A DNA stretch of 31,482 nt from Promethearchaeota archaeon (GCA_048938005.1 JBHLMQ010000037.1:1-31482), one strand, 5' to 3'; shown: positions 14,103 through 30,359, counted from the first letter of the stretch. Notes: generated from the sequence alone by a model not told the origin. Program-made: numbers and translations.

Positions 14103-15716
14103 TTAATCTTGATATATCGGCATAAGTCCCGTTTGGAAATGCCGCAATCTTAATTCTGCGCCTCGAGAGATTTTAACTTTTGGAATTTTTTCTTTATTCT
14201 GAAAGAGTTGTTTAATAGCAGCTACAGTATAATCTATATGAGACGTACTATACACATTACGAGGTACTGCAAAACGAACCAAATTTAATATCCCCTTTCT
14301 TTGTTCAGGAGTTTTCTTATCCCACTCAAATGCGAAAGGTCCTAATTCACAAGCTCTTATTCCATAATGTCTAAGAAGTTCAATAGTAAATCCAACGCCT
14401 CCAAAATCATCAATCTTCATATTTGTTCCCTCAAAAAACTTATCCATATTTAAGTAAACCGCATGGCCACCTGCGGGAAGGATAACGGGAATACCATTTT
14501 TAGCAAGCTTTCTAGCAAATTCTCTTACTTGTGTTTTTCGTTCATTTAAATAAGATTCCTGCACAATTTCATAAAGCCCTGCTGCGAGTGCCATAATATC
14601 TCGCCCAGACATACCACCATAGGAATCATTTCCGAAAGTCATTAGCTGTTTTTCTTTCAACTTAATTCCAATATCTTCATTAATGGAAAGCTTTTTGTGG
14701 AAAATTCCTTTATCTTTAAAGAAGAACCCTCCACCAATGTTGGCTAGTCCATCTTTTTTAAAACTTACAGTGAAACCATCAGCATATGAGAACATTTCTT
14801 GAACAATACTTGGTATTGTACGATTTTGAAATCCTTCTTCAAATTCTTTTATAAAATTAGCATTTTCAGCAAATCTGCATGCATCAAAAAAAAGGGGAAT
14901 GTCATATCTTTCTGCTATTTTATGAACTTCTTTAACATTTCTCATCGAAACTGGTTGCCCAGCAGCTCTATTATTAGTAATTGTTATATAAATTATTGGA
15001 ATAGAATCTACTCCTTTATCTTGAATCAACTTTTCAAGTTCTTTAACGTCCATATTACCTTTGAATGGATTTCTTACATCCATTTCATCATAAGGAAAAT
15101 CCTCCATTAAGTTTTCTGATAGGAGATTTACAGCATGAATACCATTAGCAACAATATTGGCTTCAGTTGTATCAAAGTGTCCATTATTTGGAATATAATA
15201 TTCAAGATCTGGATTTCTCTGTTTTAAGAGGGGAGCAATAGTTGAGAAGAGCAAATGTTCTGCACAGCGTCCTTGGGGAACTATGAAAGCGTTAGGACGG
15301 GCTAACTGGTGAACTCCACCATTAACAAATCCTCCTTCATAAGATGTAAGGTAGAGATCATCCATTAATTTTTTTACATTTGTTTCTCCTGAAAGGATCA
15401 TATTAATTGATCGTTTTGGATTATCTCCACGTTCAAAAGTATCTCTAACTGCATCTAGAAGAACATAATAACCTTTATTACGAGCATAAGATTCATCTCC
15501 ATGAAAAAGAGCAGCCCATTGAAAATCTGTCATTGTACCAGAACCAGAGTCTGATAAAAAATCCACAAATAATAAATCTGCTGGAAAGGAAAACATGTTG
15601 TATTCAGTTTTCTCAAGTACATATTCACGTTGTTTTTTCGTAACTTTTTTGATTGTCCGAATTACTAACGGTTTATTTGCGGGGATTGGAAAACCTAATT
15701 CATCCTGAGATTTCAA
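14103..15716 (-). CDS. tnaA: Tryptophanase (PLP beta-eliminating lyase)
   Basis: DFLSDSG, GDESYA, QGRCAE, DACRFAENA, SFKKDG (PLP Lys), GGHAVY. HFDTT, GIRACELG and LRHF match tryptophanase rather than tyrosine phenol-lyase (YFTTT, ERG, LRFF). Confidence 0.85.
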   Translation of the reverse strand: MKSQDELGFPIPANKPLVIRTIKKVTKKQREYVLEKTEYNMFSFPADLLFVDFLSDSGSGTMTDFQWAALFHGDESYARNKGYYVLLDAVRDTFERGDNPKRSINMILSGETNVKKLMDDLYLTSYEGGFVNGGVHQLARPNAFIVPQGRCAEHLLFSTIAPLLKQRNPDLEYYIPNNGHFDTTEANIVANGIHAVNLLSENLMEDFPYDEMDVRNPFKGNMDVKELEKLIQDKGVDSIPIIYITITNNRAAGQPVSMRNVKEVHKIAERYDIPLFFDACRFAENANFIKEFEEGFQNRTIPSIVQEMFSYADGFTVSFKKDGLANIGGGFFFKDKGIFHKKLSINEDIGIKLKEKQLMTFGNDSYGGMSGRDIMALAAGLYEIVQESYLNERKTQVREFARKLAKNGIPVILPAGGHAVYLNMDKFFEGTNMKIDDFGGVGFTIELLRHYGIRACELGPFAFEWDKKTPEQRKGILNLVRFAVPRNVYSTSHIDYTVAAIKQLFQNKEKIPKVKISRGAELRLRHFQTGLMPIYQD

Positions 15717-15902
15717 AATCTTCTACCTACAATTTACTATAACAATTATTAAATTGAGTTTTTCAACTATTTTTGAAATTATAATTCTAAATCATTAAAA
15801 AATCATTTGTAAACTAAAACTTAAGAAATTAATAATTGAAAATTTTAATTTTAATCTTAAATTCATTTATTAATAAATTAATTTTCTAAAGAGATAATAA
15901 AA

Positions 15903-17591
15903 ATGCGACTCCCAGATTATATTAAAGACAGAATTTGGAAGGATTATTTACCAGATGGAATTACTCTTGAAATTGACATTCCTGAAGATAAGTCTTTAAT
16001 TGATTTATTTGAAAATGGGGCTAAAGAATATGCCGATAAAGTAGCATATAATTACTTTGGAAGAGAATTCACATATAGAGAAATAGATCAATTAACAAGA
16101 AGATTTGCTTATGCCCTCTTAAAATTAGGGATAAAAAAGGGAGATGTAGTAGCTCTTTGGCTACCAAATTGTCCACAGTTTAGTATTTGTTATTTTGCTA
16201 CATTAGGTCTTGGAGCTACATTAACTGCTATTAGTCCCTTATTTGTGGCAAGAGAGATGATTTATCAAATAAAAGATTCGGGTGCAAAATATCTTATAAT
16301 GATTGATAGATTTTTTCGAGAATTTAAAAAAGCAGAAGATCAATTAACATTGGAAAAAGTGATTTTAGTGAATGTAGAGGGAAAAGTTCCAGATATAACT
16401 GAGACTGACAAATTAATACATTACAACACATTGATGGACCAAAATCCTGAACCCCTAACAGAATTCACAGTCGAGATCAATCCAAAAGAAGATATTGCGA
16501 TTATTCAATATACAGGAGGGACAACAGGCGACCCTAAAGGTGCTGAACTATCTCATTATAATGCTCTATCAAATTTGATGCAAATTGGACAAATCTCGGA
16601 TTATATGAAAGAATATTATATTAAGGGAGATCTCATCGGCCTTTCTATACTCCCTTGGTATCATGTATATGGTCAAATATGTGAGCTTTTACAAGGTCCG
16701 CGTACTGGGGGTAAGGGGATTATTTTTCCAACTTTTGATATCCCCCGGATAATTGAAACTATAAAGAAGAAACAAGCTAATTTCATACTTGGAGTGCCTA
16801 CTATGTTTATTAATATATTAGGATCGCCTTTAAGTAAAGATATTGATTTTTCGTGTCTTAAATATTGTAATGTAGGAGCATCTGCAATGCCAATCGAAGT
16901 TGCAAAGGAATGGGAACAAAAAACTGGATTTCCATTAGGAGAGGGATATGGTTTAAGCGAATCAACTGTCTGTGTTACAAATTCTCCACCATGGGGTAAG
17001 AAAAAGTTGGGGAGCTGTGGTATTCCTATAACTAGCACTTTAATTGGGATTATTAATGAAAATCTAAATTTCTTACCAATAGGGGAGCCTGGAGAATTAG
17101 TTGCTTCAGGTCCTCAAATTATGTTAGGTTATCATAATCGACCTGAAGAGAATAAAAAGGTATTTTTTGAAGCAGGAGGCTATAGATGGCTAAGAACAGG
17201 TGATTATGCAAAAATGGACGAAGAAGGGTATATTTTCTTAATCGATAGAGTCAAAGATATGATAAAATACAAAGGGCATAGTGTATATCCAAGAGAAATC
17301 GAGGAAGTTATGTATGAACATCCTGCGATTCAAGAATGTGCTGTAATCGGTGTTAAAGATCCAGAAAGAGGTGAAAACATAATGGCATATATCATTCTTA
17401 AGAAAGAATTTAAAGGCAAAATCACCGAACAAGAAATAGTAGAGTGGTCAAAGGAAAATATGGCAGCCTATAAATATCCAAGAATTGTAAAATTTGTAAA
17501 TTCTCTTCCAAAGAGCGCGGTAGGAAAAGTTTTAAGACGGGTAATTAGAGATAAAGAAGCCAAAAAAGCAGAAAAAAGAAAAATGAACTAA
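15903..17591 (+). CDS. Long-chain fatty acid--CoA ligase (FadD-like)
   Basis: YTGGTTGDPKG, GEGYGLSES, GPQIMLGY, WLRTGD, DRVKDMI, LPKSAVGK. Confidence 0.93.
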   Translation: MRLPDYIKDRIWKDYLPDGITLEIDIPEDKSLIDLFENGAKEYADKVAYNYFGREFTYREIDQLTRRFAYALLKLGIKKGDVVALWLPNCPQFSICYFATLGLGATLTAISPLFVAREMIYQIKDSGAKYLIMIDRFFREFKKAEDQLTLEKVILVNVEGKVPDITETDKLIHYNTLMDQNPEPLTEFTVEINPKEDIAIIQYTGGTTGDPKGAELSHYNALSNLMQIGQISDYMKEYYIKGDLIGLSILPWYHVYGQICELLQGPRTGGKGIIFPTFDIPRIIETIKKKQANFILGVPTMFINILGSPLSKDIDFSCLKYCNVGASAMPIEVAKEWEQKTGFPLGEGYGLSESTVCVTNSPPWGKKKLGSCGIPITSTLIGIINENLNFLPIGEPGELVASGPQIMLGYHNRPEENKKVFFEAGGYRWLRTGDYAKMDEEGYIFLIDRVKDMIKYKGHSVYPREIEEVMYEHPAIQECAVIGVKDPERGENIMAYIILKKEFKGKITEQEIVEWSKENMAAYKYPRIVKFVNSLPKSAVGKVLRRVIRDKEAKKAEKRKMN

Positions 17592-17666
17592 GATTATTTT
17601 TTTATTACTTTAATTCTTTATTTTCAATAACTATATGGTTTTAATATTTCAGTTAATAGTTAAATT

Positions 17667-20027
17667 ATGAATGAACGAATAAAGAAGCTACGAACACAAA
17701 GTCGTGAAGCAATTCCTTATCTTTCTTTAGAACGTGCATTATTATTAACAGAATTTTATGAAACTGGCGCAGCACATAAATATTCTGCCCCAGTTGCTAG
17801 AGCAAAAGCGTTTAAGTATTTAATGGAAAATAAAAAAATTTGTATTAATGAAGGGGAATTAATTGTAGGGGAACGTGGCCCAGAACCCAAAGCAACATCT
17901 ACTTATCCTGAAGTATGTTGCCACAGTTTACAAGATTTAGACATTCTAAATACTCGTGATAAAACTTCCTTTAAAATATCTGAAGATACAAGACAAAAAA
18001 CAAAGGATATTATTATTCCATTTTGGAAAGGAAGATCTATTCGTGATAAAATCTTTTCTCAAGTTGATGATGAATGGATTGATGCATATAAAGCAGGGAT
18101 TTTCACAGAATTTATGGAACAGAGGGCACCTGGACATACTGTTGGAGGGAAAAATTTATGGGAAAAAGGATTTTTAGATTTTAAACGAGAAATAAAAGAA
18201 AACATAGAGAAATTAGACTTTTACAACGATCCTGAAGCATTTAATAAAAGAGAACAGTTATTAGCTATGAATATCGCTGCTGACGCGATAATTAATTTTG
18301 CTGAACGCTATGCTCAAGAAGCCAAATCTCTCGCTATCAATGAATCAGATCCAAAAAGAAAGGAAGAGCTAGAGAAAATATATCAGATATGTTGCCATGT
18401 CCCTGCTCAAGCTCCCAGAACGTTTTGGGAGGCACTCCAACATTATTGGTTCATTCATTTAGGTGTTATAACTGAATTTAATACGTGGGATTCTTTCAAT
18501 CCGGGACGCTTAGATCAACACCTATATCCATTTTATGTCAAGGATGTTGCTAATTGTATATTAACAGAGGAAAAGGCGCATGAATTACTCCAAGCTTTTT
18601 GGGTAAAGTTTAACAACCAACCTGCCCCTCCTAAAGTTGGTGTTACAGCAGAAGAAAGTAATACCTATATTGATTTTTGCAACATTAATATCGGGGGCCT
18701 TAAAGAAGATGGTTCTGATGGAGTAAATGAAATATCTTATATGCTTTTAGATGTAATTGAAGATATGATAATTGTCCAACCAAGTAGTAATGTTCAGATT
18801 AGTAAGAAGACACCAGATAAATTTTTACATCGGGCGCTCGAAATAATCAAAATTGGTTTTGGACAACCATCAGTTTTCAATGCTGACGCAATAGTTCAAG
18901 AATTAACCAGACAAGGTAAATCCATAATAGATGCTCGAAATGGTGGAGCAAGTGGTTGCGTTGAATCTGGTGCTTTTGGAAAAGAAGCTTATATATTAAC
19001 AGGATATTTTAATTTAGTAAAAATCCTTGAAATTACACTTCATAATGGTTTTGATCCCTTAACTAAAAAACAGATTGGATTGAAAACTGGTGATCCTACG
19101 ACTTTTAATACTTTTGAAGATTTTTTTAAAGCTTATACAAGACAAGTTAGACATTTTATAGATATAAAAATTAAAGGAAATCAAATAATTGAACGTATTT
19201 GGGCACAAAATCCCGCTCCTTTCCTTTCTATCTTGATCGATGATTGTATTAAAAATGGGAAGGACTATAATGATGGTGGAGCTAAATATAATACATCTTA
19301 CATTCAAATTGTAGGAATGGGCAGTATAACTGATTGTTTAACTTCTATAAAGTATAATGTATATGATAAAAAAATTATATCTATGGAAGAATTGATAAAA
19401 ATCTTAGATAATAATTTTGAAGGATTTGAGAGTATTCGTCAAAAATTAATCTATAGAACCCCTAAATACGGGAATGACAATGATTATGCGGATTCCATAA
19501 CCACTCAAGTTTTTGATATTGTTTATGATGCAATTAATAATCGCCCTAATACTAAAGGTGGCGTTCATCGAATTAACCTTCTCCCTACAACAGTTCATAT
19601 CTATTTCGGTAAAGTAACGGATGCCACTCCAGATGGACGTAAGGCATACACTCCTCTTTCAGAAGGTATCTCTCCGGTTCAAGGAATGGATATTAATGGC
19701 CCAACTGCTGTTATTAAATCTGCAGCAAAAATTGATCATCTTCGAACAGGAGGAACATTATTGAATCAAAAGTTTACACCTAACTTACTATCAAATGAAG
19801 AGGGGATTACTAAATTAGCACATTTAATAAGAGCATATTTTCAAATGAATGGCCATCATATCCAATTTAATGTGGTCTCAGCAGATACTTTACGGGCTGC
19901 TCAGAAAAGTCCAGAAAAATATAGAAATTTAATTGTGCGAGTTGCAGGATATAGTGACTATTTCGTTAATTTAGGCTCCGATTTACAAGATGAAATTATA
20001 AGAAGAACAGAACATGCTACGATTTGA
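17667..20027 (+). CDS. hypD: Glycyl radical enzyme, trans-4-hydroxy-L-proline dehydratase-like
   Basis: RVAGYS glycyl loop and SGCVE Cys loop. Segments I recall from HypD are present: TYPExCCH, FTEFMEQRAPGHTV, WDxFxPGRLDQ, KFNNQPAPPKVG, ESxTYxDF, EAYxLTGY, LPTTxH. Confidence 0.85.
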   Translation: MNERIKKLRTQSREAIPYLSLERALLLTEFYETGAAHKYSAPVARAKAFKYLMENKKICINEGELIVGERGPEPKATSTYPEVCCHSLQDLDILNTRDKTSFKISEDTRQKTKDIIIPFWKGRSIRDKIFSQVDDEWIDAYKAGIFTEFMEQRAPGHTVGGKNLWEKGFLDFKREIKENIEKLDFYNDPEAFNKREQLLAMNIAADAIINFAERYAQEAKSLAINESDPKRKEELEKIYQICCHVPAQAPRTFWEALQHYWFIHLGVITEFNTWDSFNPGRLDQHLYPFYVKDVANCILTEEKAHELLQAFWVKFNNQPAPPKVGVTAEESNTYIDFCNINIGGLKEDGSDGVNEISYMLLDVIEDMIIVQPSSNVQISKKTPDKFLHRALEIIKIGFGQPSVFNADAIVQELTRQGKSIIDARNGGASGCVESGAFGKEAYILTGYFNLVKILEITLHNGFDPLTKKQIGLKTGDPTTFNTFEDFFKAYTRQVRHFIDIKIKGNQIIERIWAQNPAPFLSILIDDCIKNGKDYNDGGAKYNTSYIQIVGMGSITDCLTSIKYNVYDKKIISMEELIKILDNNFEGFESIRQKLIYRTPKYGNDNDYADSITTQVFDIVYDAINNRPNTKGGVHRINLLPTTVHIYFGKVTDATPDGRKAYTPLSEGISPVQGMDINGPTAVIKSAAKIDHLRTGGTLLNQKFTPNLLSNEEGITKLAHLIRAYFQMNGHHIQFNVVSADTLRAAQKSPEKYRNLIVRVAGYSDYFVNLGSDLQDEIIRRTEHATI

Positions 20028-20233: not shown

Positions 20234-21016
20234 TTGATAAACAAAATGAGTAAAGAAAAATTTGAAGATATATTTAAAATTGTAGTTTTTGGAGCATCTG
20301 GCGTTGGTAAAACTACGTTGCTTAAACAATTTTCTGATAAACCTCTCCATGAAGATACAGCTCAAACAGTAGGTGTAGATTTTTTTATTAAAAGTGTAAA
20401 TGTTGATGGAAAGGATTATAAACTTCAGTTTTGGAATATTATTGATGATGAAAAATTTGGATCACTTCAAACACTATATTACACGGGTGCATCAGCAGTC
20501 TTTTTGGTATTTGATTTATCTAGACCAGAAACTTTTGATTATTATCAAACCAATTTTGAAAAAGTCTGGAATCAGATCAAACTAGATAAATGCCCTGTGC
20601 TTTTAATTGGAAATAAACGTGATTTAGTTGAGAATCTGGAAACAATTGATAGGGAAAGATATCGTGAATTTGTTAAAAAAGAAGGTTTATTGGGATATAT
20701 TGAATTAACTTCCATGAATAAGATTGATGATCTAATAAACCATATTCCCATTATTATTCAAAAAGCTCGAAAAAAAAGTTATCAAGTCAAATTTTTAGTA
20801 AATAGTAAAGAATTAGAAGACATTAAAAAATATGCTCGGCTTTCACATCAAAAACAATCTGAATTCATTCGCACAGCAATATGGGAAAAAATTAGACTGA
20901 TAGATGCTCCATCAATTATTAAGAGTAAAAATAAGAAAAAAAATATTGAAGAAAACAAATTAAGTTCAGAGGAATTAAAAAGAATTCGAGAATTATTAGA
21001 AAAGCTAAAACAGTAA
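20234..21016 (+). CDS. Rab-like GTPase (degenerate G3) fused to a predicted ribbon-helix-helix domain and C-terminal coiled coil
   Basis: G1 GASGVGKTT, G2 TVGVDF, YYTGA, G4 GNKRD; G3 reads WNIIDD. Residues 181-222 (KSYQVKFLVNSKELEDIKKYARLSHQKQSEFIRTAIWEKIRL) fit the CopG/Arc RHH pattern. Likely start is ATG 20246. Confidence 0.85.
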   Translation: MINKMSKEKFEDIFKIVVFGASGVGKTTLLKQFSDKPLHEDTAQTVGVDFFIKSVNVDGKDYKLQFWNIIDDEKFGSLQTLYYTGASAVFLVFDLSRPETFDYYQTNFEKVWNQIKLDKCPVLLIGNKRDLVENLETIDRERYREFVKKEGLLGYIELTSMNKIDDLINHIPIIIQKARKKSYQVKFLVNSKELEDIKKYARLSHQKQSEFIRTAIWEKIRLIDAPSIIKSKNKKKNIEENKLSSEELKRIRELLEKLKQ

Positions 21017-21051: not shown

Positions 21052-21822
21052 TTAAAAAATAAAAGGAATAAGCGCTTTACGATTTTTAGGATAATCAGGA
21101 AATGTTTTAATATACCACTGATGATGGGAACGAGCTCTAGGCGCAAGATTTGCGAATGTCCAAGCAGCAAAAATGAGTCCTGGAAAAGACCACGTCATTA
21201 ATGCCCAGCCTGTCCATTCTATAATCTCTCCGAGATAGGTTGGGCTACTTACATATTTAAACATCCCTCCATATGGGATTTTATATTCAGTTTCACTAGG
21301 TTTACGTAGATTATGAATTATGAGATCTGAGTGGAAATTAATAACATATCCACAAAAGTATGTTATAACGCCTAAAATAAATATTGGGCTAAATAACCAA
21401 ATTATTAGATAAGGGGGAGAAAAATTGTAGATCCATCTTGCCTGTAAATATGCGTTAATACCATTAAAGATAAATCCCATTAATATAATAGAAATAGGCA
21501 TTGGTTGCTTTCCACGAATTAACAATGGAAATATAAAGGTTCGTCGAAAGTAATGGAACATCCAAAAAAACAAGAATACCAGAGGAACAACTTCAGTTTT
21601 TCGATCACTTATAAAGTAAAAGATAAAATAGATGATTATAGTTGGTATTTCCATAACAAACCAACCGAGCTTGTTGTTTCTTATTGCAGGGCCCCATTTC
21701 TTGTTTATGTGTTGACCATAACCAGCAGTGATAAAAGATAAAACTATGAAGAATATTATTGAGGATAAACCAAAACCTATCATTAATGTAGTAAAAATAT
21801 AAAACTCATCCATTATTATCAA
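21052..21822 (-). CDS. Steroid 5-alpha-reductase family (SRD5A/DET2-like) membrane reductase
   Basis: GYG, WFVMEIP, HYFRR, HSDLIIHNLRKP, YKIPYGGMFKYVSSPxYLGEIIEW, NLAPRARSHHQWY; multiple TM helices; likely start ATG 21813. Confidence 0.92.
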   Translation of the reverse strand: MIIMDEFYIFTTLMIGFGLSSIIFFIVLSFITAGYGQHINKKWGPAIRNNKLGWFVMEIPTIIIYFIFYFISDRKTEVVPLVFLFFWMFHYFRRTFIFPLLIRGKQPMPISIILMGFIFNGINAYLQARWIYNFSPPYLIIWLFSPIFILGVITYFCGYVINFHSDLIIHNLRKPSETEYKIPYGGMFKYVSSPTYLGEIIEWTGWALMTWSFPGLIFAAWTFANLAPRARSHHQWYIKTFPDYPKNRKALIPFIF

Positions 21823-21948
21823 TTCTGCTATTTAATCTTGATTCTAAAGCCACAACTTAAAGATTATAGAAATTTTCTTTTTATCATCCTTATATCATTT
21901 GAAATCTCCAATAAATTTTTAACTTTTCTACCTTTTAAAATATATAAT

Positions 21949-22710
21949 ATGAGTAGAGACAGTCAATTAAGAAAGCTACTTCAAACAGGTGCTCTCCGTG
22001 GAATAATATTTGATTTTGATGGTACTCTTCTTGATATAAGAGAAATCCTTGAAAAATCGATCGAAGAAGTTCTTGCTGATAAAAATGTAAATGTGGATAT
22101 GGAAACTACAATACAAGAAATAGGGGCTTTATTAGAAACCATTCAAGGATATCCATTACCAAAAGTGTTACTTGAATCATATGAGATATTCAACCATATA
22201 ACTGCTCTTAATGGTTTAACTTATTTTAAAAAATTAAGAATCGCAGTAAATATTTTTGCTAAATATTTGGAATACGCGAAAGAGGCTTCTTTTTTTCCAG
22301 GTGCGAAAACGCTTTTAGAAAAACTTGGCAAATCTAGTGATCTTTTCATTATTTCTCATAACAAAACAGAAACAATAATGGAACATTTAGAAAAAGAAGG
22401 GCTCAATGGTGACTATTTTAAAGGTGTTTATGGAAGTGATAAAATTCCTGTCCAAAAACCAGATCCTATGGCACTTCAACCAGCTTTAGAAAACTATAAA
22501 AAACGTCGTAGAGATGAATTTGTAATGATAGGTGATATGCCATCAGATATAAGTGCTGGTCGAGATGCTGGATTTTGGACGATTGCAGTAGCAAGTGGAG
22601 TCAGTAAAAGACAAATACTTGCTGAATGTCAACCAGATCTATTACTTAATTCTATTAATGAATTAATAGAGTTATTAGAAAAAAAATCACTAACAGAATC
22701 GAGCTCTTAG
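21949..22710 (+). CDS. HAD-superfamily phosphatase
   Basis: Motif I FDFDGTL, motif II ISHN, KPDP, motif IV MIGDMPSD. ATG 21949 is preferred over the TTG at 21838, which runs through the divergent promoter region. Confidence 0.9.
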   Translation: MSRDSQLRKLLQTGALRGIIFDFDGTLLDIREILEKSIEEVLADKNVNVDMETTIQEIGALLETIQGYPLPKVLLESYEIFNHITALNGLTYFKKLRIAVNIFAKYLEYAKEASFFPGAKTLLEKLGKSSDLFIISHNKTETIMEHLEKEGLNGDYFKGVYGSDKIPVQKPDPMALQPALENYKKRRRDEFVMIGDMPSDISAGRDAGFWTIAVASGVSKRQILAECQPDLLLNSINELIELLEKKSLTESSS

Positions 22711-22938
22711 GAATAAAAAAGAGACATGACTTTAAGGGTGAGGCTTTTATTTCTAAATTTAGGAGATAATTCTCATAAAATGGCTTTAACAAGAACTATT
22801 AAGATTAAAAATGATCATACTTTTTCACGTATTACTCTAACCATTAATTTTTTATATAAACGAGTCTTTAAGTAAAATTAATTCAGCTGAAAATATCGTT
22901 TTTTTATTAAATTTTCACGCTTTTTTTAATAACATTTA

Positions 22939-24615
22939 GTGAAAACAATGGAACTTGAAAAAATAGAAAAAAAAGGAGTAGAAACTGCCCGAGAGCTCGA
23001 TCTCAAGAAAAACATCGAAGAAAAAATGCAGGAAGAACTGAAATACGAAAAACGACATCAAGATTGGACCTATAAGATTATGAAATTCAACCCTATAGAT
23101 CCTTTAAATGACTTGTATCGATATATAATTAAAAGATTGGATTTAAAGCCAATAGAAGGACGTTTACAATGGTGGGCTGCTTATATTTATATTAAATGGG
23201 CTGTTAGAACTTTCTGGAACTTCAAAGCAGAATATCCGAAAGGAAATATGTTTCCAGAATATGGCCCAGGTATTTTGGTGGGCAATCATGAGTCACATAT
23301 TGACCCATTCTTCTATGGTGCTGCATGTCATCGCAGAATACGCTATATGAGTAAACTAGACAATTTTAAAACTCCTATTGTTAAAACTCTTTTCAATAAT
23401 CTTGGAGCTTTTAAAGTAGATCGTGAAAATCCAGAACGAGGTTGGCAAAAGGCAAAAGAAATCATCCAAGGTGGAGAGTGGGTAGGGATTTTTCCCGAAG
23501 GTACACGGTCTCAGGATGGAGAACTGGGTGAATTTAAAACTGGAGCTGTCCGATTGGCAATCGAGATGAATGTTCCAATTGTTCCTATGGCCGTAATAGG
23601 CTCGATGAATGCGCTCCCTAAGGGCAAGTTAGTAATGAAACCCGCTCAAGTAATAGTGCGTGTTGGTGATCCAATTTATTATTATGATTATGATATTAAT
23701 ACTGTTTCTTATGATGATATTATTCGATTAACTGATGAATTGAGGAATGTTGTTTGGGAATTACGGGAAGGTCTTTATGGAAAGGAAGAAGAGGAAGAAC
23801 TTTCCATTGGTTCACCAGAAGAAGTTGTTAAGGAACCTAAATTTAACTTTATGAGTTATTTGAAAGATCAGGGGAAGGGAATTCTTAGGCTCATTGATGA
23901 TTCTTGGTATGCTCTATTGAAGAGTTTAGAAGAATTTGGAGTGCGAAGGCAATTTCAGAAAACAGTAATGACTTTCTCGGGAGAATTAGTTGATGCATGG
24001 TCGAATCTGATGATGCCATATAGAGCAATAGACTTTGAGAAATATATGCCAGAAGAAGGTGGTGTTCTTATTTGCCCAAGTCATAATTCTGAATGGGATG
24101 TACTCATACTGGCTACAACCTTGATCCATCACCCTCCAAGGCGAGTGATGTGGCAAATGGCAAAACAATCACTTTTTAAAATTCCACTTGTTAATGCATG
24201 GGTAAGAAATCATCATGCTTTTCCATTAAAACGAGGGATGCATGATGTGGATTCTTATAAATTTGCAAGAGAACTTCTTGAACAGGGGGAAGTAGTTTGT
24301 ACTTACCCTGAAGGAACGACCAATCCTGGGGGTGGTCAACTTTTAGAGGGTCATACTGGTCCCATGCGGTTAGCTATAGAAACACAGGTACCGATAATTC
24401 CGATCGGAATTACGGGCACTGAGCAAACGTACCCTAAACACGCGAAAATGTTGAAATTTTATAAAGGTCAAATACTAAGATGTGGTCCCCCATTCATGGA
24501 GCATCAACAATATTGGGGCAAGCCAGTGCCGGATTATGATGAACTTAAGAGATTAACAGCCAATATGATGGATCGGATCAGGGATTTACTTTATTATGAT
24601 ACTCCTGATGTATGA
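22939..24615 (+). CDS. Tandem double lysophospholipid acyltransferase (PlsC-PlsC)
   Basis: Domain 1: NHESHID, GAFKVDR, FPEGTRS, VPIVP. Domain 2: SHNSEWD, AFPLKR, YPEGTT, VPIIP. Both Hx4D catalytic motifs are intact. Confidence 0.92.
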   Translation: MKTMELEKIEKKGVETARELDLKKNIEEKMQEELKYEKRHQDWTYKIMKFNPIDPLNDLYRYIIKRLDLKPIEGRLQWWAAYIYIKWAVRTFWNFKAEYPKGNMFPEYGPGILVGNHESHIDPFFYGAACHRRIRYMSKLDNFKTPIVKTLFNNLGAFKVDRENPERGWQKAKEIIQGGEWVGIFPEGTRSQDGELGEFKTGAVRLAIEMNVPIVPMAVIGSMNALPKGKLVMKPAQVIVRVGDPIYYYDYDINTVSYDDIIRLTDELRNVVWELREGLYGKEEEEELSIGSPEEVVKEPKFNFMSYLKDQGKGILRLIDDSWYALLKSLEEFGVRRQFQKTVMTFSGELVDAWSNLMMPYRAIDFEKYMPEEGGVLICPSHNSEWDVLILATTLIHHPPRRVMWQMAKQSLFKIPLVNAWVRNHHAFPLKRGMHDVDSYKFARELLEQGEVVCTYPEGTTNPGGGQLLEGHTGPMRLAIETQVPIIPIGITGTEQTYPKHAKMLKFYKGQILRCGPPFMEHQQYWGKPVPDYDELKRLTANMMDRIRDLLYYDTPDV

Positions 24616-24635
24616 GTTATTGAGGAATTAACTAA

Positions 24636-25703
24636 ATGGAAACAAGTGAGCAGCCGAGCAAAAAAAAAATAAAAGTTGGAATTCCACGAGCTCTTCACTT
24701 TTATAGGTATTTTCCTTTTTGGAAGAAATTACTTGAAGAATTAGAGGTTGAACTCGTTCTAAGTCCACCAACTAATAAAAAAATCGTTGAAGAAGGCGTA
24801 ACACATGGATTCGGAGAGCTTTGTATCCCCGTAAAGATATATTATGGTCAAGTATTAAAATTAGTAAGAGACAATCCAGATTTGGATTATATTTTTGTTC
24901 CGAGGTATGTAGCAGAAGTAAAAGAGGCTTACTTTTGTCCTAAATTTTTATCATTGCCTGATCTTATTAAAATTTTGCCAAATGTCCCTAAAATATTAAA
25001 TTTTGAAGTAAATGTGAAGGAGTTTCCTATCGCAACTTCAGCAATCGAGCTTGGAAAGGAATTAGGTAAGAATCAAAATCAGTCATTAAAAGCTTATAGA
25101 GAAGCTCAAAACTACTTTGATGAATATCACAAATTTTTGAGAGATGGAGCTTCAGTTAACCATGCTCTACGATTAGTAGAAAGAAATCGTCCATTTAATT
25201 TACCTAAGAGGAAGTATAAAGGTGACATTAAATTCTTACTTTTAGGTCATGCTTATAATATTTTTGACACCTTTATTAATTTAGATTTCCAGAAAAAATT
25301 AAGAGATCAAGGTGTCAGGGTTATTACTATCGAAAATTTACCTGAATCGTTGTTTAAAGAACCAGTGATAATAAATCCAAAAGGAGGGCGACTTCGAAAT
25401 TACTGGAAACATGAAGAAGAAATTCTAGCAGCAATGCGATATTTCTTGAAAGAAGGTCGTAAAGAAATAGATGGAGTAGTTTTCCTTATAAGTTTTGCTT
25501 GTGGGCCTGATAGTCTTATCTCCGAATTAATCAAGCATGATATGAAAGTTGTGGGATTACCTTTCCTGGAAATTATTATGGATGAACATTCTGGAGAGGC
25601 GGGGCTCCTAACTAGAGTTGAATCCTTTGTGGAAATGGTTCGGAGGAAAAAAAAGAAGTTAGCATTGGATTCAAAAAAGACTTCTGCTGTCAAAACTTTA
25701 TGA
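24636..25703 (+). CDS. DUF2229 / 2-hydroxyacyl-CoA dehydratase-like Fe-S reductase subunit
   Basis: KVGIPRAL, ELCIPVKIYYG, YFCPKF, LLGHAYN, SFACGPD, DEHSGEAGLLTRVESF; GAGGA SD-like site, 20 nt after the plsC stop. Confidence 0.85.
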   Translation: METSEQPSKKKIKVGIPRALHFYRYFPFWKKLLEELEVELVLSPPTNKKIVEEGVTHGFGELCIPVKIYYGQVLKLVRDNPDLDYIFVPRYVAEVKEAYFCPKFLSLPDLIKILPNVPKILNFEVNVKEFPIATSAIELGKELGKNQNQSLKAYREAQNYFDEYHKFLRDGASVNHALRLVERNRPFNLPKRKYKGDIKFLLLGHAYNIFDTFINLDFQKKLRDQGVRVITIENLPESLFKEPVIINPKGGRLRNYWKHEEEILAAMRYFLKEGRKEIDGVVFLISFACGPDSLISELIKHDMKVVGLPFLEIIMDEHSGEAGLLTRVESFVEMVRRKKKKLALDSKKTSAVKTL

Positions 25704-25990
25704 ATAAACGATCATTCAATTACTTCACACAAATTATAATAAACTAAAAAGAGCTGTATTCTTTTTTTATTAAATTTAAATAAATTTTTTAATAATCAAT
25801 ATTATTTTAAAGTCTCTCACTGATAAATAAAATTTTTTTGTTTAAATAGATGGAGATAGTAAGAGTTCTAATAAGCTTAATCGAATAATATGAGTAATCA
25901 TATTTTTTGTGGTATAATATTTAAATATTTAGCTATAATTTTATTTTCTTATTTATTTAAATCAATCAATATCTAAGTAAAACAAAAAAA

Positions 25991-28942
25991 ATGGCAAATA
26001 AGAGCCTTTCTGGTATAGATAAACGGGAATTCAAATATTTTGAAGGGTTAGAAATTGGTGCTGTTTCAGTAAAATGGGTTCGTAGAACGGAAGATGGAAC
26101 GATATTCAGCGAAATTATACGGCATGAAGGTTATCCAGAAAAAAAGGTAAAGGAAATTTTCGAACGCTATAAATCTAATTATAATTCAAGAATTGTTATT
26201 ACTGGTCATGCGGCAAAGCGTTTTCTTAATCTACCCTACTATTCTGAGGTTGAGTGTCTTGAAAAAGCATTATCATTTTATAACCTAAAGCCTAATATTC
26301 TACTTTCTCTTGGTGGAGAAACATTTAGTGTTTATCCAATGAAAAATGGAATTATAAAGAATATCATCGCTACTACTAAGTGTGCTGCTGGTACAGGCGA
26401 GTTCATTGTCCAACAGCTTCAAAGGATGGGAATGACAATTGATGAAGGAATAAATGCTAGTTTATACGGGGAGTTTACTCCGCTCGCAACACGCTGCTCT
26501 GTTCACTGTAAATCCGATGCGACTCATAAGCTTAATAAGGGTGAATGCAAACCAGAAGATATTGCAAAAACTTTAATTCACGATTTAGCGAGAAAGGTTA
26601 GCCAAATGATTGATTCAGCACAGTGGTCAACAGATTTAATTGTAATATCTGGAGGAGTTGCTTTAAACAAAATTTTTATTGAAAGTCTACAAAATTTTCT
26701 TATCAGCTCGGAAATCAAAATCCTCCCTGAGAGTCCTTTTCTTGAAGTCTTTGGAGCTTCTCTATACGCATCCGAGTTTCAAGAAGAAATCCCCCCTCCT
26801 GAAAAATGGTTCAAAAAATCAACTGATGAATTCGAAAGTCATGAACCACTCACAAATGCTGAATCTCTCTTGGATTATCGTGTTAACACAAATGCTCAAG
26901 GAAAAATAATTGAAGGTGATTCATATATCCTCGGGATAGATGCAGGTTCAACCACAACTAAGGCAGTTTTATTTAACGTTTCTGATGATTCAGTAGGGGC
27001 AAGTATATATTTAAGAACTTTGGGTAACCCTATATTGGCAACAAAACAATGTCTTAACGGACTCATAGATCAGTTAGGAGAAAAATCCATTAAGATAATT
27101 CAATGTGGTGTTACTGGTTCAGCAAGAGAGATGGTCTCAGTTTATTTAGATAATTGTCGGAGCTTTAATGAGATACTAACACATGCTAGATCAGCTGTTG
27201 AAGAAGTAGCAAATGTAGATACTGTATTTGAAATTGGTGGTCAAGATTCCAAGTTTATTTCATTTTTAAAAGGTGTGCCTATTGATTATGCAATGAATGA
27301 AGGATGTTCAGCTGGAACAGGAAGTTTCCTTGAGGAGTCTGCTTCAGTTGATATGGGTATCCCTGTTGAAGATATTAGTAAAATCGCTCTAGAGAGCTTA
27401 AACCCTATTGCATTTGGTGAAAGATGTGCCGCTTTCATTAACACTGATTTAAGAAATGCACTACAACAAGGTGCCAAACAAGAGGATGTTGTTGCTGGTC
27501 TTGTTTATTCAATAGCAGAAAATTATATTTCTCGTATTATTGGTCCTCGTCATGTAGGGAAAAATCTTCTTTTTCTTGGGGGGGTAGCTTTAAATAGATC
27601 CGTTGCTTTAGCCATAGCTGCTCGCTTGCAGCAAAAAGTGATCGTCCCAGCTCATCCTGAACTAATGGGTAGCGTGGGAACTGCTCTCATGACGCGTGAT
27701 CTTTTACAAGAGGGAGTGATTTCTAAACGAGAGTTTAATCTTAGTAATTTAGTAAAGGGTGAAATGGAATTAAGAAAAGTTTTTAGATGTAAAGCATGTG
27801 AAAACAATTGCGAAATTCAAAATATATCTATAAGAGGGAAGCATTACCCTTTTGGAGGAGTGTGCTCAAAATATAGATTAATACGCCAAAAGGGTAAGAA
27901 AATAAAGGAAGGCCTTGATTTAGTAGAATTACGAAATATCATGATGTTAGGAGAATTCGGCCCCCAAACCGTTAAAAATCCGCGTGGTACAATTGGTCTT
28001 CCAATGACGTTAACAACTCATGTGCTTTTCCCTTTATATACAAAATTTATTAATGAACTTGGTTATAATGTATTGTTATCTAAACCTTCAAAGCTAGGTA
28101 ATACAAAAACGTTAGCAGCTATATGCTATCCATGTGAACTGGTTCACGGTGCAATTCTCGACCTTTTGAATCAAGATGTTGATTTTATTTTCTTACCTCG
28201 AGTTATTGAGTTAGAAATTCCAAAAGGTTATATTCATGGATATACCTGCCCTTCTACTACTGTCATTCCAGATGTTATACGTGCTGCATTTGAAACAGAG
28301 AAAGATAAAATTCTATCACCACATCTAGGTCTTTCAAAAGATCTCATTAATACGACGATAAGGGAATTAGGGAGAATTGCCACCATTTTAGGCTTAAAAA
28401 ATGATTTAGGTCAAGAAGCTGGAAAGAAAGCCATCGCCCACTATAAGAAGTTTATGATGAAATTCAGAGAATTAGGAAAAGAAAATTTAAAAAAATTGAT
28501 AGAAGAGCCAACAATTATTATTGCAGGAAGGCCTTACATCATTTATCCTTCAAATATTAATTTAGCTCTTCCTAGGAAGATTATAAGCAGAGGATATAAT
28601 ACAATTCCCGCAGATATGTTACCTCAGATAAGTGATAATGAGGTTCATAAAAGAAATGCCTGGAGTTTTACTCAGCAAATAAGTAATGCAGTAAAATATG
28701 CTAAAAAGTATCCTAATTTATACATTTGTTTTGTCTCCTGCTTTTCATGTGGTCCTGATGCTATTATGTATCACCATTTTCGAGATGAATTGGTAGGTAA
28801 TACGTTCTGTTATCTTGAAATAGACTCGCACACGGCACATGCGGGTTTTGAAACAAGAGTGGGTGCGTTCTTAGATATTATTGAGGAAAGGCGTCGAAAA
28901 ATAGATAAAAATTATTCACAAATTCTAACTTTGACAATTTAA
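25991..28942 (+). CDS. PlsA/Ger-like protein: two ASKHA CoA-activase domains + Fe-S linker + DUF2229 reductase domain
   Basis: Activase 1: GLEIGAVSVK, KCAAGTG, RCSVHC. Activase 2: GIDAGSTTTK, EIGGQDSK, MNEGCSAGTG, RCAAF. Linker CKACENNC...C. Reductase: CYPCE, YTCP, AGRPY, FSCGPD, EIDSHTAHAGFETRVGAF. Confidence 0.85.
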   Translation: MANKSLSGIDKREFKYFEGLEIGAVSVKWVRRTEDGTIFSEIIRHEGYPEKKVKEIFERYKSNYNSRIVITGHAAKRFLNLPYYSEVECLEKALSFYNLKPNILLSLGGETFSVYPMKNGIIKNIIATTKCAAGTGEFIVQQLQRMGMTIDEGINASLYGEFTPLATRCSVHCKSDATHKLNKGECKPEDIAKTLIHDLARKVSQMIDSAQWSTDLIVISGGVALNKIFIESLQNFLISSEIKILPESPFLEVFGASLYASEFQEEIPPPEKWFKKSTDEFESHEPLTNAESLLDYRVNTNAQGKIIEGDSYILGIDAGSTTTKAVLFNVSDDSVGASIYLRTLGNPILATKQCLNGLIDQLGEKSIKIIQCGVTGSAREMVSVYLDNCRSFNEILTHARSAVEEVANVDTVFEIGGQDSKFISFLKGVPIDYAMNEGCSAGTGSFLEESASVDMGIPVEDISKIALESLNPIAFGERCAAFINTDLRNALQQGAKQEDVVAGLVYSIAENYISRIIGPRHVGKNLLFLGGVALNRSVALAIAARLQQKVIVPAHPELMGSVGTALMTRDLLQEGVISKREFNLSNLVKGEMELRKVFRCKACENNCEIQNISIRGKHYPFGGVCSKYRLIRQKGKKIKEGLDLVELRNIMMLGEFGPQTVKNPRGTIGLPMTLTTHVLFPLYTKFINELGYNVLLSKPSKLGNTKTLAAICYPCELVHGAILDLLNQDVDFIFLPRVIELEIPKGYIHGYTCPSTTVIPDVIRAAFETEKDKILSPHLGLSKDLINTTIRELGRIATILGLKNDLGQEAGKKAIAHYKKFMMKFRELGKENLKKLIEEPTIIIAGRPYIIYPSNINLALPRKIISRGYNTIPADMLPQISDNEVHKRNAWSFTQQISNAVKYAKKYPNLYICFVSCFSCGPDAIMYHHFRDELVGNTFCYLEIDSHTAHAGFETRVGAFLDIIEERRRKIDKNYSQILTLTI

Positions 28943-28952
28943 AACTAAAATC

Positions 28953-30359
28953 ATGACTGAAATTAAACAACCTGAAAATTTAGAAATAATCCGAAAAGTC
29001 AACCAAGCACGATTTTCGAAAGATTTTAAGTATATTTTAGATAGTGATGGTCAAAAAGTAGAGTATGATGATCCAAGAATAGTCTTTGTTAATACATGTG
29101 CCCGAAATCCTTATGGAAAACGTCTTGTTATAGACTTGTATGAAAAATATAATCGTAGAATTAGAATTAGCGAAGATACTGATTATAAAATTTTACAGTA
29201 CGGTAAAAAGATTTGTTCTGGACGTGAATGTGTTGTCACTGTTGCTGTAGCTGGCGCAGTTTTAAAGGATATTAATGAGAATCGAAAAGATAACGAGATC
29301 ACTATATATATAGCACCAATTGATCAATATGGTCCTTGTCAGAATGGGGCATGGCCAGTACTTTGGAATTCATTAGCTAAGAGAATAAATTTGAAAAACA
29401 TCATATATAACGCTTGGCCCAAGTATTCTAACAATTACTTAGGATTGCCCCAAGATCTACTAGCCTTCGAGAACATTAATTTCATCATAGGACACGCCCT
29501 AACCGAAGTTAGAAATGCATTGCAATGCGTTGCTGAAGAAAAGAATGTGGCTTTGAAGGAATTTGAAGATATAACAGATACCTTTATTGAAAATGTAAAA
29601 CAAGGAAAAAAAACCTTAAAAACAGGCTTAATTCAATGGGCAAAAGAAATAGTTAAAATACCTCTCATGTCTACCGTTGAAGAAACCACTAAAATACTAA
29701 TTTTTGGTGGAATAAATTTATTGTTTGACCATTATCCTATAGAAAATTTTTTCCTCGAAAAAGGGATCATTGTAAAAGTTGTTGACTTAACTGAGTTTTT
29801 GAGTGTATTACTAGCTGAAAGTACCATAAGGTTTGGCTTTAAGAAGGGTATTACCAATCCGAAGCAACAATTTAAGGAGATATTAACCGATTTTTCTGAA
29901 CTAAATGAGGGAGACAGAAGAGAAGCTGGAAGAGCAAGAGCTAAGCAAAACGCAATACAGATTCTAAATTCCCAGTGTAAAGGTTATCGAAAAATAATTG
30001 GAAAATCTGGTTTGCTGTTTGATTCACATGTAGATATCGTAGAAATCCTGGAAGAAGGAAATAAATACGTATCCTCAAATAGTTATACCGAAACTCCTGT
30101 AATTACAGGTAGGTTCATACATTCAATTAAAGAGGGGATCTACGACGGCCTTATTAATCTTGGTACGTTTAACTGCCAACCAGCTATGAACTCACAAGCC
30201 ATCATACGTCCTCTAGCGAATAAGTGTGAGATTCCTTATGCTGCGATAGATTGTGAAGGTCCGTGGATATCAACAAATCAACGTAGGCTTCTTGAAACCA
30301 TTGCCATTCAAGCTAAGAGAGTGCGCAAAAGGAAGAATGAACTATTAACTAAGAGATAG
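28953..30359 (+). CDS. PlsR-like second reductase/dehydratase subunit
   Basis: 10 nt downstream of the PlsA-like gene; GKKICSGREC, GPCQNG, DGLINLGTFNCQP, PYAAIDCEG, RLLET. Confidence 0.72.
   Translation: MTEIKQPENLEIIRKVNQARFSKDFKYILDSDGQKVEYDDPRIVFVNTCARNPYGKRLVIDLYEKYNRRIRISEDTDYKILQYGKKICSGRECVVTVAVAGAVLKDINENRKDNEITIYIAPIDQYGPCQNGAWPVLWNSLAKRINLKNIIYNAWPKYSNNYLGLPQDLLAFENINFIIGHALTEVRNALQCVAEEKNVALKEFEDITDTFIENVKQGKKTLKTGLIQWAKEIVKIPLMSTVEETTKILIFGGINLLFDHYPIENFFLEKGIIVKVVDLTEFLSVLLAESTIRFGFKKGITNPKQQFKEILTDFSELNEGDRREAGRARAKQNAIQILNSQCKGYRKIIGKSGLLFDSHVDIVEILEEGNKYVSSNSYTETPVITGRFIHSIKEGIYDGLINLGTFNCQPAMNSQAIIRPLANKCEIPYAAIDCEGPWISTNQRRLLETIAIQAKRVRKRKNELLTKR

Follow-up and report, generated by a model that had tools for sequence, protein, structure and literature searches.

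A Promethearchaeota contig of 31,482 nt (contig C64 of assembly G000, analyzed over its whole length and here called the window, whose positions are used for numbering) carries five co-oriented genes that encode a HAD phosphatase, a double PlsC acyltransferase (PlsC2), a DUF2229 Fe-S protein (D355, or alpha), a protein of 983 amino acids (aa) with two activase domains (BBD), and its partner of 468 aa (P468). These genes constitute two modules with different histories and not one operon. Module 1 (HAD, PlsC2, and alpha) is the conserved front of a PlsC(s)-alpha-beta-activase operon that is found throughout the Lokiarchaeia, while module 2 is a cassette of BBD and P468. In the reading that we prefer, and which we consider evenly poised between right and wrong, an older PlsC-coupled split reductase module was joined by a bacterial-derived cassette of the PlsA/PlsR/Ger type, and the chemistry would be a conversion of esters to ethers. 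An earlier note on this DNA had described the five genes as one lipid locus; in this form the description is not borne out, as PlsC2 and D355 go with beta and an activase, whereas the cassette is patchily distributed and was deleted in a related genome (G177). The features of the locus are as follows (other genomes, fetched loci, families, and genera are labeled G, L, f, and g, respectively).

21949 to 22710, plus strand: HAD-IA phosphatase, 253 aa, module 1 (PF13419, 1e-25; PF00702).
22939 to 24615, plus strand: PlsC2, double PlsC acyltransferase, 558 aa, module 1 (PF01553 twice, 1.8e-57).
24636 to 25703, plus strand: D355 (alpha), stand-alone Red1-like DUF2229/HGD-D Fe-S protein, 355 aa, module 1 (PF09989, 1.2e-45).
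25704 to 25990, no strand: AT-rich intermodule gap, 287 bp, with a T-run after D355 and TATA-like boxes before BBD.
25991 to 28942, plus strand: BBD, 983 aa, Act1-Act2 ATPases, a 4-Cys motif, and Red1 (DUF2229), PlsA-like, module 2 (PF01869 twice, PF09989).
28953 to 30359, plus strand: P468, 468 aa, Red2, PlsR-like partner, module 2 (homology to fused forms).

All five genes were confirmed on the plus strand, and the gaps that had been put at about 230 and 290 bp measured 228 bp (22711 to 22938, between HAD and PlsC2) and 287 bp. The HAD open reading frame (ORF) covers 21838 to 22710 and is open from a TTG at 21838; the FDFDGT (DxDGT) motif follows directly after M38, which corresponds to the ATG at 21949, the likely start of the gene. 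PlsC2 belongs to the PlsC/AGPAT proteins by its PF01553 domain and its HX4D and PEGT motifs. It scored 165 bits against TIGR00530 (cut-off, 103), and both domains have kept the HX4D and (F/Y)PEGT motifs (HESHID/FPEGTRS and HNSEWD/YPEGTT). D355 is a paralog of the Red1 part of BBD (26% identity, 8e-29) with invariant cysteines C63, C101, and C289; its last 60 residues gave a weak HGD-D (PF06050) match of 27.2 bits, under the cut-off of 28.4.

Orthologs of D355 were detected in 106/134 genomes of family f1 (66 to 94% identical), 13/14 of f3, 1/1 of f2, 1/4 of f4, and 7/7 of f5 to f7, with more distant matches in 23/31 genomes of f13 and 11/12 of f18; beta was found in 107/135 f1 genomes. Outside g1, the genus of the window's genome, alpha, beta (395 to 443 aa), and a single activase (about 340 aa) were contiguous in 13 of the 15 loci that were fetched. 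PlsC, as one double gene or as two genes, lay directly upstream of alpha in 12 of these loci, a HAD gene was present upstream in 12, and a third PlsC followed the activase in 6. Several of the 15 loci had been chosen in the knowledge that an activase was near, and 13/15 is therefore not an unbiased rate; in a less biased check, matches to D355 and beta lay less than 500 bp apart in 16 non-g1 genomes. The genome with the named P. syntrophicum MK-D1 record displays a contiguous PadR-PlsC-alpha-beta-activase arrangement, in which the PlsC-to-activase part occupies L217:6513-10998, and a HAD gene is located 2 kb beyond it. The N-terminus of beta resembles DUF2229 weakly and its C-terminus belongs to HGD-D; beta fitted a P468 profile (98.9%, 1.8e-17) better than D355 did (95.3%, 2e-8); alpha was therefore equated with Red1 and beta with Red2. 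Judged from these sequence matches, the operon represents a relative of PlsA/PlsR/Ger in which all parts are encoded separately and which has one activase. The DUF2229 Fe-S subunit, previously taken for a part of the PlsA/PlsR pair, is instead the alpha component of a separate three-component paralog. Ratios of nonsynonymous to synonymous divergence (dN/dS) were 0.02 to 0.07 for D355, in beta-less and beta-bearing pairs alike, and 0.04 to 0.10 for PlsC2, and alpha is under strong purifying selection in this genome.

Module 2 is, as far as can be told from homology, a DUF2229-type member of the PlsA/PlsR/Ger family that is split over two genes. BBD has the layout published under that name, two BcrAD_BadFG activation domains followed by DUF2229, with two stretches of PF01869 (3.6e-52) and PF09989 at residues 667 to 877 (2.6e-41). 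Residues 19 to 965 of BBD aligned with residues 3 to 936 of the 1,415-aa Thermotoga petrophila RKU-1 protein P0401 (345/959 identical, 36%), and a profile of 62 P468 sequences aligned with residues 952 to 1396 of the same protein (probability 100, E 8e-88), so that BBD and P468 together form a split, colinear homolog of the Thermotoga Ger-type protein. P0401 served as a stand-in for T. maritima Tmari_0479, as we take the two species to be very close. P468 also aligned end to end with residues 983 to 1428 of the fused 1,444-aa protein P0116 from Candidatus Abyssobacteria (44%, 2e-135). It supplies the second reductase module and was adjacent to BBD in 20/20 fetched Asgard loci, which had been picked from 41 genomes as the top of the match table plus representatives of g5 and g12. 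The PlsA/PlsR/Ger architecture that the earlier note had assigned to the 983/468-aa pair was thus upheld by colinearity with fused bacterial and Thermotoga Ger-type proteins. Twelve sequences shared the invariant cysteines C128/C166, C438/C478, C599/C602/C606/C624, and C711/C752/C918 (P0116 numbering), that is, two in each activase domain, a CxxCxxxC...C motif, and three in Red1, and C93, C129, and C408 of P468 were invariant in 62 sequences. By analogy, we presume that these residues belong to the activase-bridging, 4-Cys, and Red1/Red2 clusters.

The ATPase part of BBD matched the activators HadI, MbdQ, and HgdC in the PDB (5e-32 to 9e-24). PDB matches of BBD were confined to this part, the catalytic parts having no sequence-level match, and P468 gave no sequence match in Pfam, NCBIfam, or the PDB. 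An AlphaFold2 model of P468 built with the 62-row alignment reached a pLDDT of 92 and a pTM of 0.91 (pLDDT of 34 from the single sequence). With this model, Foldseek returned, at E values up to 0.0032, only 13 listed catalytic chains of benzoyl-CoA reductase (BCR), DCCP, and 2-hydroxyisocaproyl-CoA dehydratase (E 2e-5 to 3e-3, probability 0.97 to 1.00, TM 0.30 to 0.45). Full-length PF06050 and BCR B/C matches were not obtained, and the pair is not a canonical 2-hydroxyacyl-CoA dehydratase or benzoyl-CoA reductase, although a likeness at the level of the fold is present. A grouping with the Hgd/Bcr systems, which would have spoken against the proposal of the earlier note, was not apparent, as their canonical catalytic subunits were not matched by sequence.

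The distribution of the cassette was followed in 400 genomes of the phylum, presence being scored as matches of at least 64% identity and the counts being read off the match table. It was present in 41/400 genomes, all of them members of f1: 33/54 of g1 (including the window's genome), 3/6 of g5, and 5/42 of g12. Other Asgard families carry a fused form of about 1,400 aa with 36 to 41% identity to the cassette, and the genome with the MK-D1 record contains such a fused homolog at 37% identity; presumably, it is to this form that the literature refers as a "Ger homologue." Trees were calculated with FastTree (126 rows) and with a quick IQ-TREE run (53 of these rows, without the long-branch paralogs L083 and L084), and the root was not inferred. 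In the FastTree tree, 23 Asgard split rows formed one group (support, 100) nested in a clade of 38 rows (clade A), the rest of which was bacterial or untitled (Desulfobacteraceae, Desulfuromonadaceae, Desulfocicer, Thermodesulfobacteriota, "Deltaproteobacteria," Abyssobacteria, and Terriglobia). The IQ-TREE tree likewise placed 12 Asgard split rows in one group (support, 100) among bacterial rows. Clade B comprised the MK-D1 type together with Nitrospirota and Acidobacteriota rows, clade C comprised metagenome-assembled genomes (MAGs) of Thermotogae, Clostridia, and Desulfobacterales, and clade D comprised Smithella and spirochaetes; identities were 34 to 41% between clades and 49 to 61% within clade C. 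Since the Asgard range is narrow and the group is nested among bacterial rows, a transfer from bacteria into one Asgard family would be the simplest reading.

Signs point to a mobile or dispensable cassette. The G177 genome has the order PlsC2-D355-TrmO-MPE, and a remnant of P468 (the last 64 codons, residues 402 to 465; 80%, 6e-25) abuts D355, from which we conclude that the cassette was deleted there. Synonymous divergence (dS) between G000 and G228 was 0.36 to 0.37 for BBD and P468 versus 0.95 to 1.01 for D355 and PlsC2, and two other pairs gave the same picture. Two cassette copies, belonging to different subclades, are present in G207 (C19:14616-17537 and C5:47801-50728). It is this deletion, the low dS, and the duplicate copies that argue for mobility or dispensability. 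The intermodule gap (25704 to 25990) is the insertion junction of the cassette, and the G177 deletion starts here. Elsewhere, the spacer between D355 and the next gene measures 0.3 to 5.2 kb and contains inserted ORFs, and other genes lie between D355 and BBD in six loci. The DNA just after D355 looks like a variable or recombination-prone spot. A repeat search revealed no direct repeats flanking the cassette except for short AT-rich chance matches. As a separate observation, many MAG contigs stop within about 0.5 kb of D355 (e.g., in G200, G192, G214, G211, G180, G182, and G218).

Assembly G000 has a size of 3.72 Mb in 101 contigs, with a completeness of 95% and an estimated contamination of 7.2%. 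The closest homologs carry titles of Promethearchaeota, Lokiarchaeota, or Thorarchaeota MAGs, Promethearchaeota being an archaeal phylum in the NCBI taxonomy, and the gene order PFL-Ras-steroid_dh-HAD-PlsC2-D355...TrmO-MPE recurs in other g1 genomes. The Asgard origin that had been proposed for the contig is corroborated by these titles, by Ras-family GTPases, and by the recurring gene order. Much of the window is contained in metagenome DNA runs from sediment and mangrove that stem from at least four studies. A contig of 5,459 bases from one run (X1) spans 24837 to 30295 with 2 differences, and a contig from another study (X6) covers 25011 to 26098 with 56 differences and bridges D355 into BBD. 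An assembly chimera, or bacterial contamination within the archaeal bin, might be suspected from the estimated contamination of the bin, from the identity of 63 to 67% between BBD and Desulfobacterota-labeled proteins, and from a slightly raised GC content at 23 to 29 kb. However, the same junctions and flanks (Ras, steroid_dh, HAD...TrmO, MPE) are found in many g1 genomes, one of them a single contig; contigs from other runs bridge D355-BBD-P468; and the 23 Asgard BBD rows form a fully supported group of their own. Because contigs from independent runs bridge the junction and the flanks recur across the genus, chimerism was rejected, and we regard this whole explanation as extremely improbable. 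The suspicion of a bacterial or chimeric contig, voiced in the earlier note itself, was thereby dispelled.

Linkage between the modules was judged in those cassette loci that offered enough DNA. In 10 of 16 such loci (nine from g1 and one from g12), D355 lay upstream of the cassette at a distance of no more than 5.2 kb, and four further loci end too early to be judged; PlsC2 was missing beside D355 in 2 of the 10 linked loci. PlsC travels with alpha, not with module 2. The expectation of a conserved plsC linkage therefore held for the alpha/beta/activase paralog across Lokiarchaeia and failed for the cassette outside g1 and in bacteria.

The window's genome contains two DUF2229 matches in all, both inside the window. 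Neither tblastn with four beta queries nor a search of the whole genome detected beta in G000, and it was likewise not detected in G228, the closest relative, or in G189, a single-contig genome. Beta and the activase are located 8 to 12 kb beyond the cassette in the majority of g1 genomes, and the window contig ends 1.1 kb after P468. A loss of beta and the single activase from G000 is probable; with the genome 95% complete and the contig ending where it does, the absence of beta is probable rather than proven. Of the three-component alpha/beta/activase system, G000 thus has alpha, while beta was not found. Among the g1 genomes, 25 hold both beta and the cassette, 8 the cassette only, 17 beta only, and 4 neither, figures to which the incompleteness of MAGs applies. 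A simple rule by which the cassette replaces beta was rejected, as the 25 genomes hold both. A decayed beta-like fragment (54% identity, three stops) was seen just upstream of BBD in G216 (C36:8188-8814).

The only PF01553 domains of G000 are the two of PlsC2, and the genome has two PlsY-domain ORFs and one GGGPS. The PlsY matches (C48:24198-24719 and C31:25631-26149) lie in open frames of about 403 to 405 aa. The usual PlsY is about half as long, and the two ORFs may therefore be fused to another domain. For D355 and P468, a predicted complex scored 0.59 (best control, 0.00), a mark reached by 58/80 solved complexes and 2/110 mismatches, with only 7/80 and both mismatches at or below 0.60; the contact agreement between runs was at least 81%, and the partner pLDDT was at least 83. 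The prediction weakly supports a complex and may reflect likeness only, as similar complexes (HadBC and BzdNO) have already been solved.

ATP-driven electron injection from an activator is established for the superfamily. By analogy, ATP hydrolysis in the activase domains would drive a low-potential electron from the bridging [4Fe-4S] cluster into the Red1/Red2 clusters, and these Fe-S clusters would reduce a carbonyl through ketyl-radical chemistry. The PlsC domains would build a glycerolipid, the HAD enzyme would remove a phosphate, and the sn-1 acyl ester of that glycerolipid would be converted to an alk(en)yl ether; for the family, the literature proposes that the sn-1 ester undergoes two one-electron reductions before protonation and dehydration take place. 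The cassette may carry out the same chemistry or may have taken over the roles of beta and the activase here. That the substrate is the sn-1 acyl ester of a glycerolipid has moderate likelihood, by analogy with these relatives. A lipid substrate is suggested mainly by the class-wide coupling of the alpha/beta system to PlsC and HAD. For the cassette it is less certain; here, family membership argues for a lipid, and the bacterial gene contexts weaken that argument.

A number of findings weigh against this lipid chemistry or against a common role of the two modules. Both gaps are AT-rich and carry T-runs after the upstream stop as well as TATA-like boxes, so that separate transcripts are likely for the modules; the earlier note's own caution about these gaps, and about non-lipid members of the activase family, was apt. 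A scan for sigma-70 promoters and terminators (38 sites versus 35.7 expected) is uninformative for an archaeon. The cassette lies away from PlsC2-D355 in 2/2 g5 and 2/3 g12 loci. Neither PlsC nor D355 was present within 8 kb of any of 14 Asgard loci of the fused type, a PlsC-like ORF was present within 10 kb in only 2/74 loci of bacterial homologs, and PlsC was present within 6 kb in 0/20 Bacillota loci with alpha, beta, and activase. Because PlsC is rare near the bacterial, fused Asgard, and Bacillota homologs, the lipid link is lineage-specific. The closest bacterial relatives instead adjoin a GlcD-like FAD oxidase with CCG Fe-S subunits, an arylesterase, an amidohydrolase_2, an IclR regulator, and an alcohol dehydrogenase. 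For the experimentally tested PlsA, PlsR, and Ger, the comparison was one with proxies: clade A of the window showed 35 to 38% identity to the clade C proxies from Thermotogae, Clostridia, and Desulfobacterales, among them L133, which is 62% identical to T. petrophila P0401. A search for GpsA-type proteins gave generic Rossmann matches only and was not used. Finally, the first lipid analysis of the cultured Lokiarchaeon was reported, in the discussion section of a 2026 paper, to have revealed archaeal lipids only, with a method that may miss esters.

A different explanation is one in which BBD-P468 of clade A is not a lipid enzyme but an ATP-dependent radical reductase or dehydratase of fermentative or catabolic metabolism, acts on a soluble substrate, and came to lie beside PlsC2-D355 by chance at the recombination-prone spot. 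Besides the catabolic and regulatory neighbors in bacterial clade A, the other genes of the window (a PFL-like glycyl-radical enzyme, an acyl-CoA ligase, ACAD, ECH, and a beta-eliminating lyase) are catabolic, the identity to the Thermotoga Ger-type protein is just 36%, the site after D355 also gathers other DUF2229 modules (a FAD_binding_4-DUF2229 fusion), and the criteria given for Ger in PMC13159169 (e <= 1e-50, coverage >= 30%) are loose. On the other hand, the same article describes BBD as conserved in all alkyl-ether producers examined. The homology to the Ger-type protein is colinear over the full length and includes the 4-Cys motif and all Red1/Red2 cysteine ligands, and radical-SAM genes flank the cassette in two of four unlinked loci scanned (L047 and L049), which is a hint only. 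We are not aware of a non-lipid function for any protein of the BBD architecture. On balance, the non-lipid explanation seems doubtful, though it deserves attention. Another view, that the five genes form one pathway in which PlsC builds a diacyl-glycerolipid, HAD trims it, and D355, BBD, and P468 reduce the sn-1 ester to an ether as a three-subunit enzyme, we consider unlikely. The genes are co-oriented and close, D355 precedes BBD at no more than 5.2 kb in the 10 of 16 assessable loci, G000, G228, and G189 keep a D355 that is still under purifying selection together with BBD-P468 and without beta, and the predicted D355-P468 complex is consistent with such an enzyme. Yet the modules differ in distribution and synonymous divergence, the cassette was cleanly deleted in G177 while PlsC2-D355 was kept, the 25 g1 genomes with both beta and the cassette leave no simple replacement, D355 and BBD are separated by other genes in the six loci mentioned, and the native partners of D355 in most Lokiarchaeia are beta and a single activase. 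A more far-reaching version of the preferred reading would hold that Lokiarchaeia, including cultured strains, vertically inherit a HAD-PlsC-alpha-beta-activase ester reductase that makes fatty-acyl-derived alk(en)yl ether glycerolipids, and that here, after the loss of beta and the activase, bacterial BBD-P468 took over, the orphan alpha pairing with P468 and receiving electrons from the fused activases; taken as a whole, this scenario appears quite improbable.

Several observations concern the surroundings of the locus. A steroid-5-alpha-reductase-family gene (21052 to 21822, minus strand; PF02544, 8e-50) lies divergently beside HAD, and the same neighbor, another lipid-type gene, is present in three other g1 loci (L041, L064, and L071); the PF02544 family includes polyprenol reductase and enoyl-CoA reductase. 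Positions 14103 to 20027 encode a beta-eliminating lyase (537 aa), an AMP-binding ligase (562 aa), and a PFL-like glycyl-radical enzyme (786 aa; PF02901, 8e-224), a block whose order is kept in G192 (L065). The window has two Ras/Arf/Roc-type small GTPases (8284 to 9162, minus strand; 20234 to 21016, plus strand), and in the genome with the MK-D1 record a Gtr1/RagA-type GTPase (L217:5171-6112) directly follows the operon activase. A protein of 1,201 aa with NosD/right-handed beta-helix repeats in six stretches is encoded at 667 to 4272. In loci where the cassette lies away from PlsC2-D355, a B12-binding radical-SAM gene (L047:12087-13364) and a plain radical-SAM gene (L049:6334-7653) are found directly beside it; the published membrane-spanning lipid synthase (Mss) is a radical-SAM enzyme. 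A fusion of FAD_binding_4 with DUF2229/HGD-D (837 aa; L048:4228-6741, minus strand; also at the contig ends of L064, L070, and L088) sits downstream of P468 or D355 in g12 and g1, and after it come an activase and two beta-like genes. It is absent from G000, whose only two DUF2229 matches are D355 and BBD. FAD_binding_4 proteins also flank bacterial BBD homologs (L089, L096, and L101). Selenocysteine was considered for these fusions, because many rows contained one TGA, and was dropped, as the TGA of L048 coincides with the stop codon of the ORF itself, where the match ends.

How an isoprenoid-ether archaeal host came to have fatty-acyl lipids is a central gap in accounts of the origin of eukaryotes, and Asgard PlsC, PlsY, and Ger homologs had earlier been noted as scattered single genes. 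Here, the acyltransferases are physically linked, throughout the class and in one cultured strain, to a phosphatase and to a radical reductase of a split PlsA/Ger-like kind. This offers a compact set of four or five genes that can be expressed and assayed to address the question of bacterial-like or hybrid membrane lipids. Ger homologs and PlsC in Lokiarchaeota have already been published; the PlsC-coupled split reductase operon and the history of the cassette appear to be new. In the literature that we searched, no earlier description of the PlsC-alpha-beta-activase operon was found, although the supplement of PMC13159169 (Data S2, table S21, and fig. S14) may list Asgard homologs and clades and could reduce this novelty. 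At least three DUF2229-type reductase lineages are present in Asgard archaea, namely, the native alpha/beta/activase system, the fused MK-D1 type, and the bacterial-derived split cassette. The presence of a "Ger homologue" is therefore not one trait, and published surveys of presence and absence may mix enzymes with different substrates. If the enzymes were non-lipid, much-cited genomic support for hybrid membranes in Asgard archaea would fall; if the vertically inherited ester reductase were real, bacterial-type chains would be attached by archaeal-type ether bonds, and the lipid divide would be crossed by a native hybrid route. The interest thus lies less in the cassette of the window than in the conserved PlsC-coupled split reductase, which is present in the cultured strain.

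Among characterized systems, the closest counterpart in layout is PlsA/PlsR, the anaerobic plasmalogen synthase of Clostridium perfringens (CPE1194/1195; Jackson et al. 2021, as cited in PMC12838417 and PMC9702350). As described there, PlsA and PlsR are encoded by adjacent genes, the first with two activation domains and Red1 and the second with Red2, they belong to the BCR/HAD superfamily with [4Fe-4S] clusters and occur in anaerobes, and their sizes of about 1,000 and 400 aa compare with 983 and 468 aa for BBD and P468. They differ in their bacterial rather than archaeal host, and Clostridia MAG proxies are 36 to 38% identical and fall in another clade. For Ger, Sahonero-Canavesi et al. (2022, PMC13159169) state that Tmari_0479 of T. 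maritima was shown to make alkyl ethers, name Desulfatibacillum alkenivorans as a further case, and report homologs in Lokiarchaeota (including P. syntrophicum) and Heimdallarchaeota. The Ger-type protein of T. petrophila is colinear with module 2 over its whole 1,415 aa; module 2 is split where that protein is fused, and it belongs to clade A instead of clade C (Thermotogae) or B (MK-D1, 37%). PlsC and PlsY in Loki- and Thorarchaeota are likewise on record in the published literature.

The HadBC/HadI, HgdAB/HgdC, BzdNOPQ, MbdONPQ, and DCCP/DCCP-R systems resemble module 2 in the sequence of the ATPase and in the fold of P468, and for HadBC/HadI, HgdAB/HgdC, BCR, and DCCP the chemistry of ATP-driven electron injection would be expected to be alike. 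Unlike in Hgd, Bcr, and DCCP, whose catalytic parts were not matched by sequence, the activases of BBD are fused in tandem to Red1, and the known relatives with BBD architecture act on lipid O-esters and not on CoA thioesters. The nearest parallel to the Lokiarchaeia operon was found in Bacillota, where alpha (annotated as "acyl-CoA dehydratase activase-related protein") was present in 185/301 sampled genomes and is 33 to 41% identical to D355. In 20 loci, the top scorers among the 185 genomes, alpha and beta were adjacent in 20/20 and the activase was adjacent in 18/20. The Bacillota triplet has the same alpha-beta-activase order as the Lokiarchaeia operon, with activases that are 50 to 58% identical, and differs from the window, in which beta and the activase are missing. 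It also lacks PlsC, whereas Lokiarchaeia attach one to three PlsC domains and a HAD phosphatase to it; with PlsC absent within 6 kb of all 20 Bacillota loci, the attachment of PlsC and HAD is a Lokiarchaeial feature.

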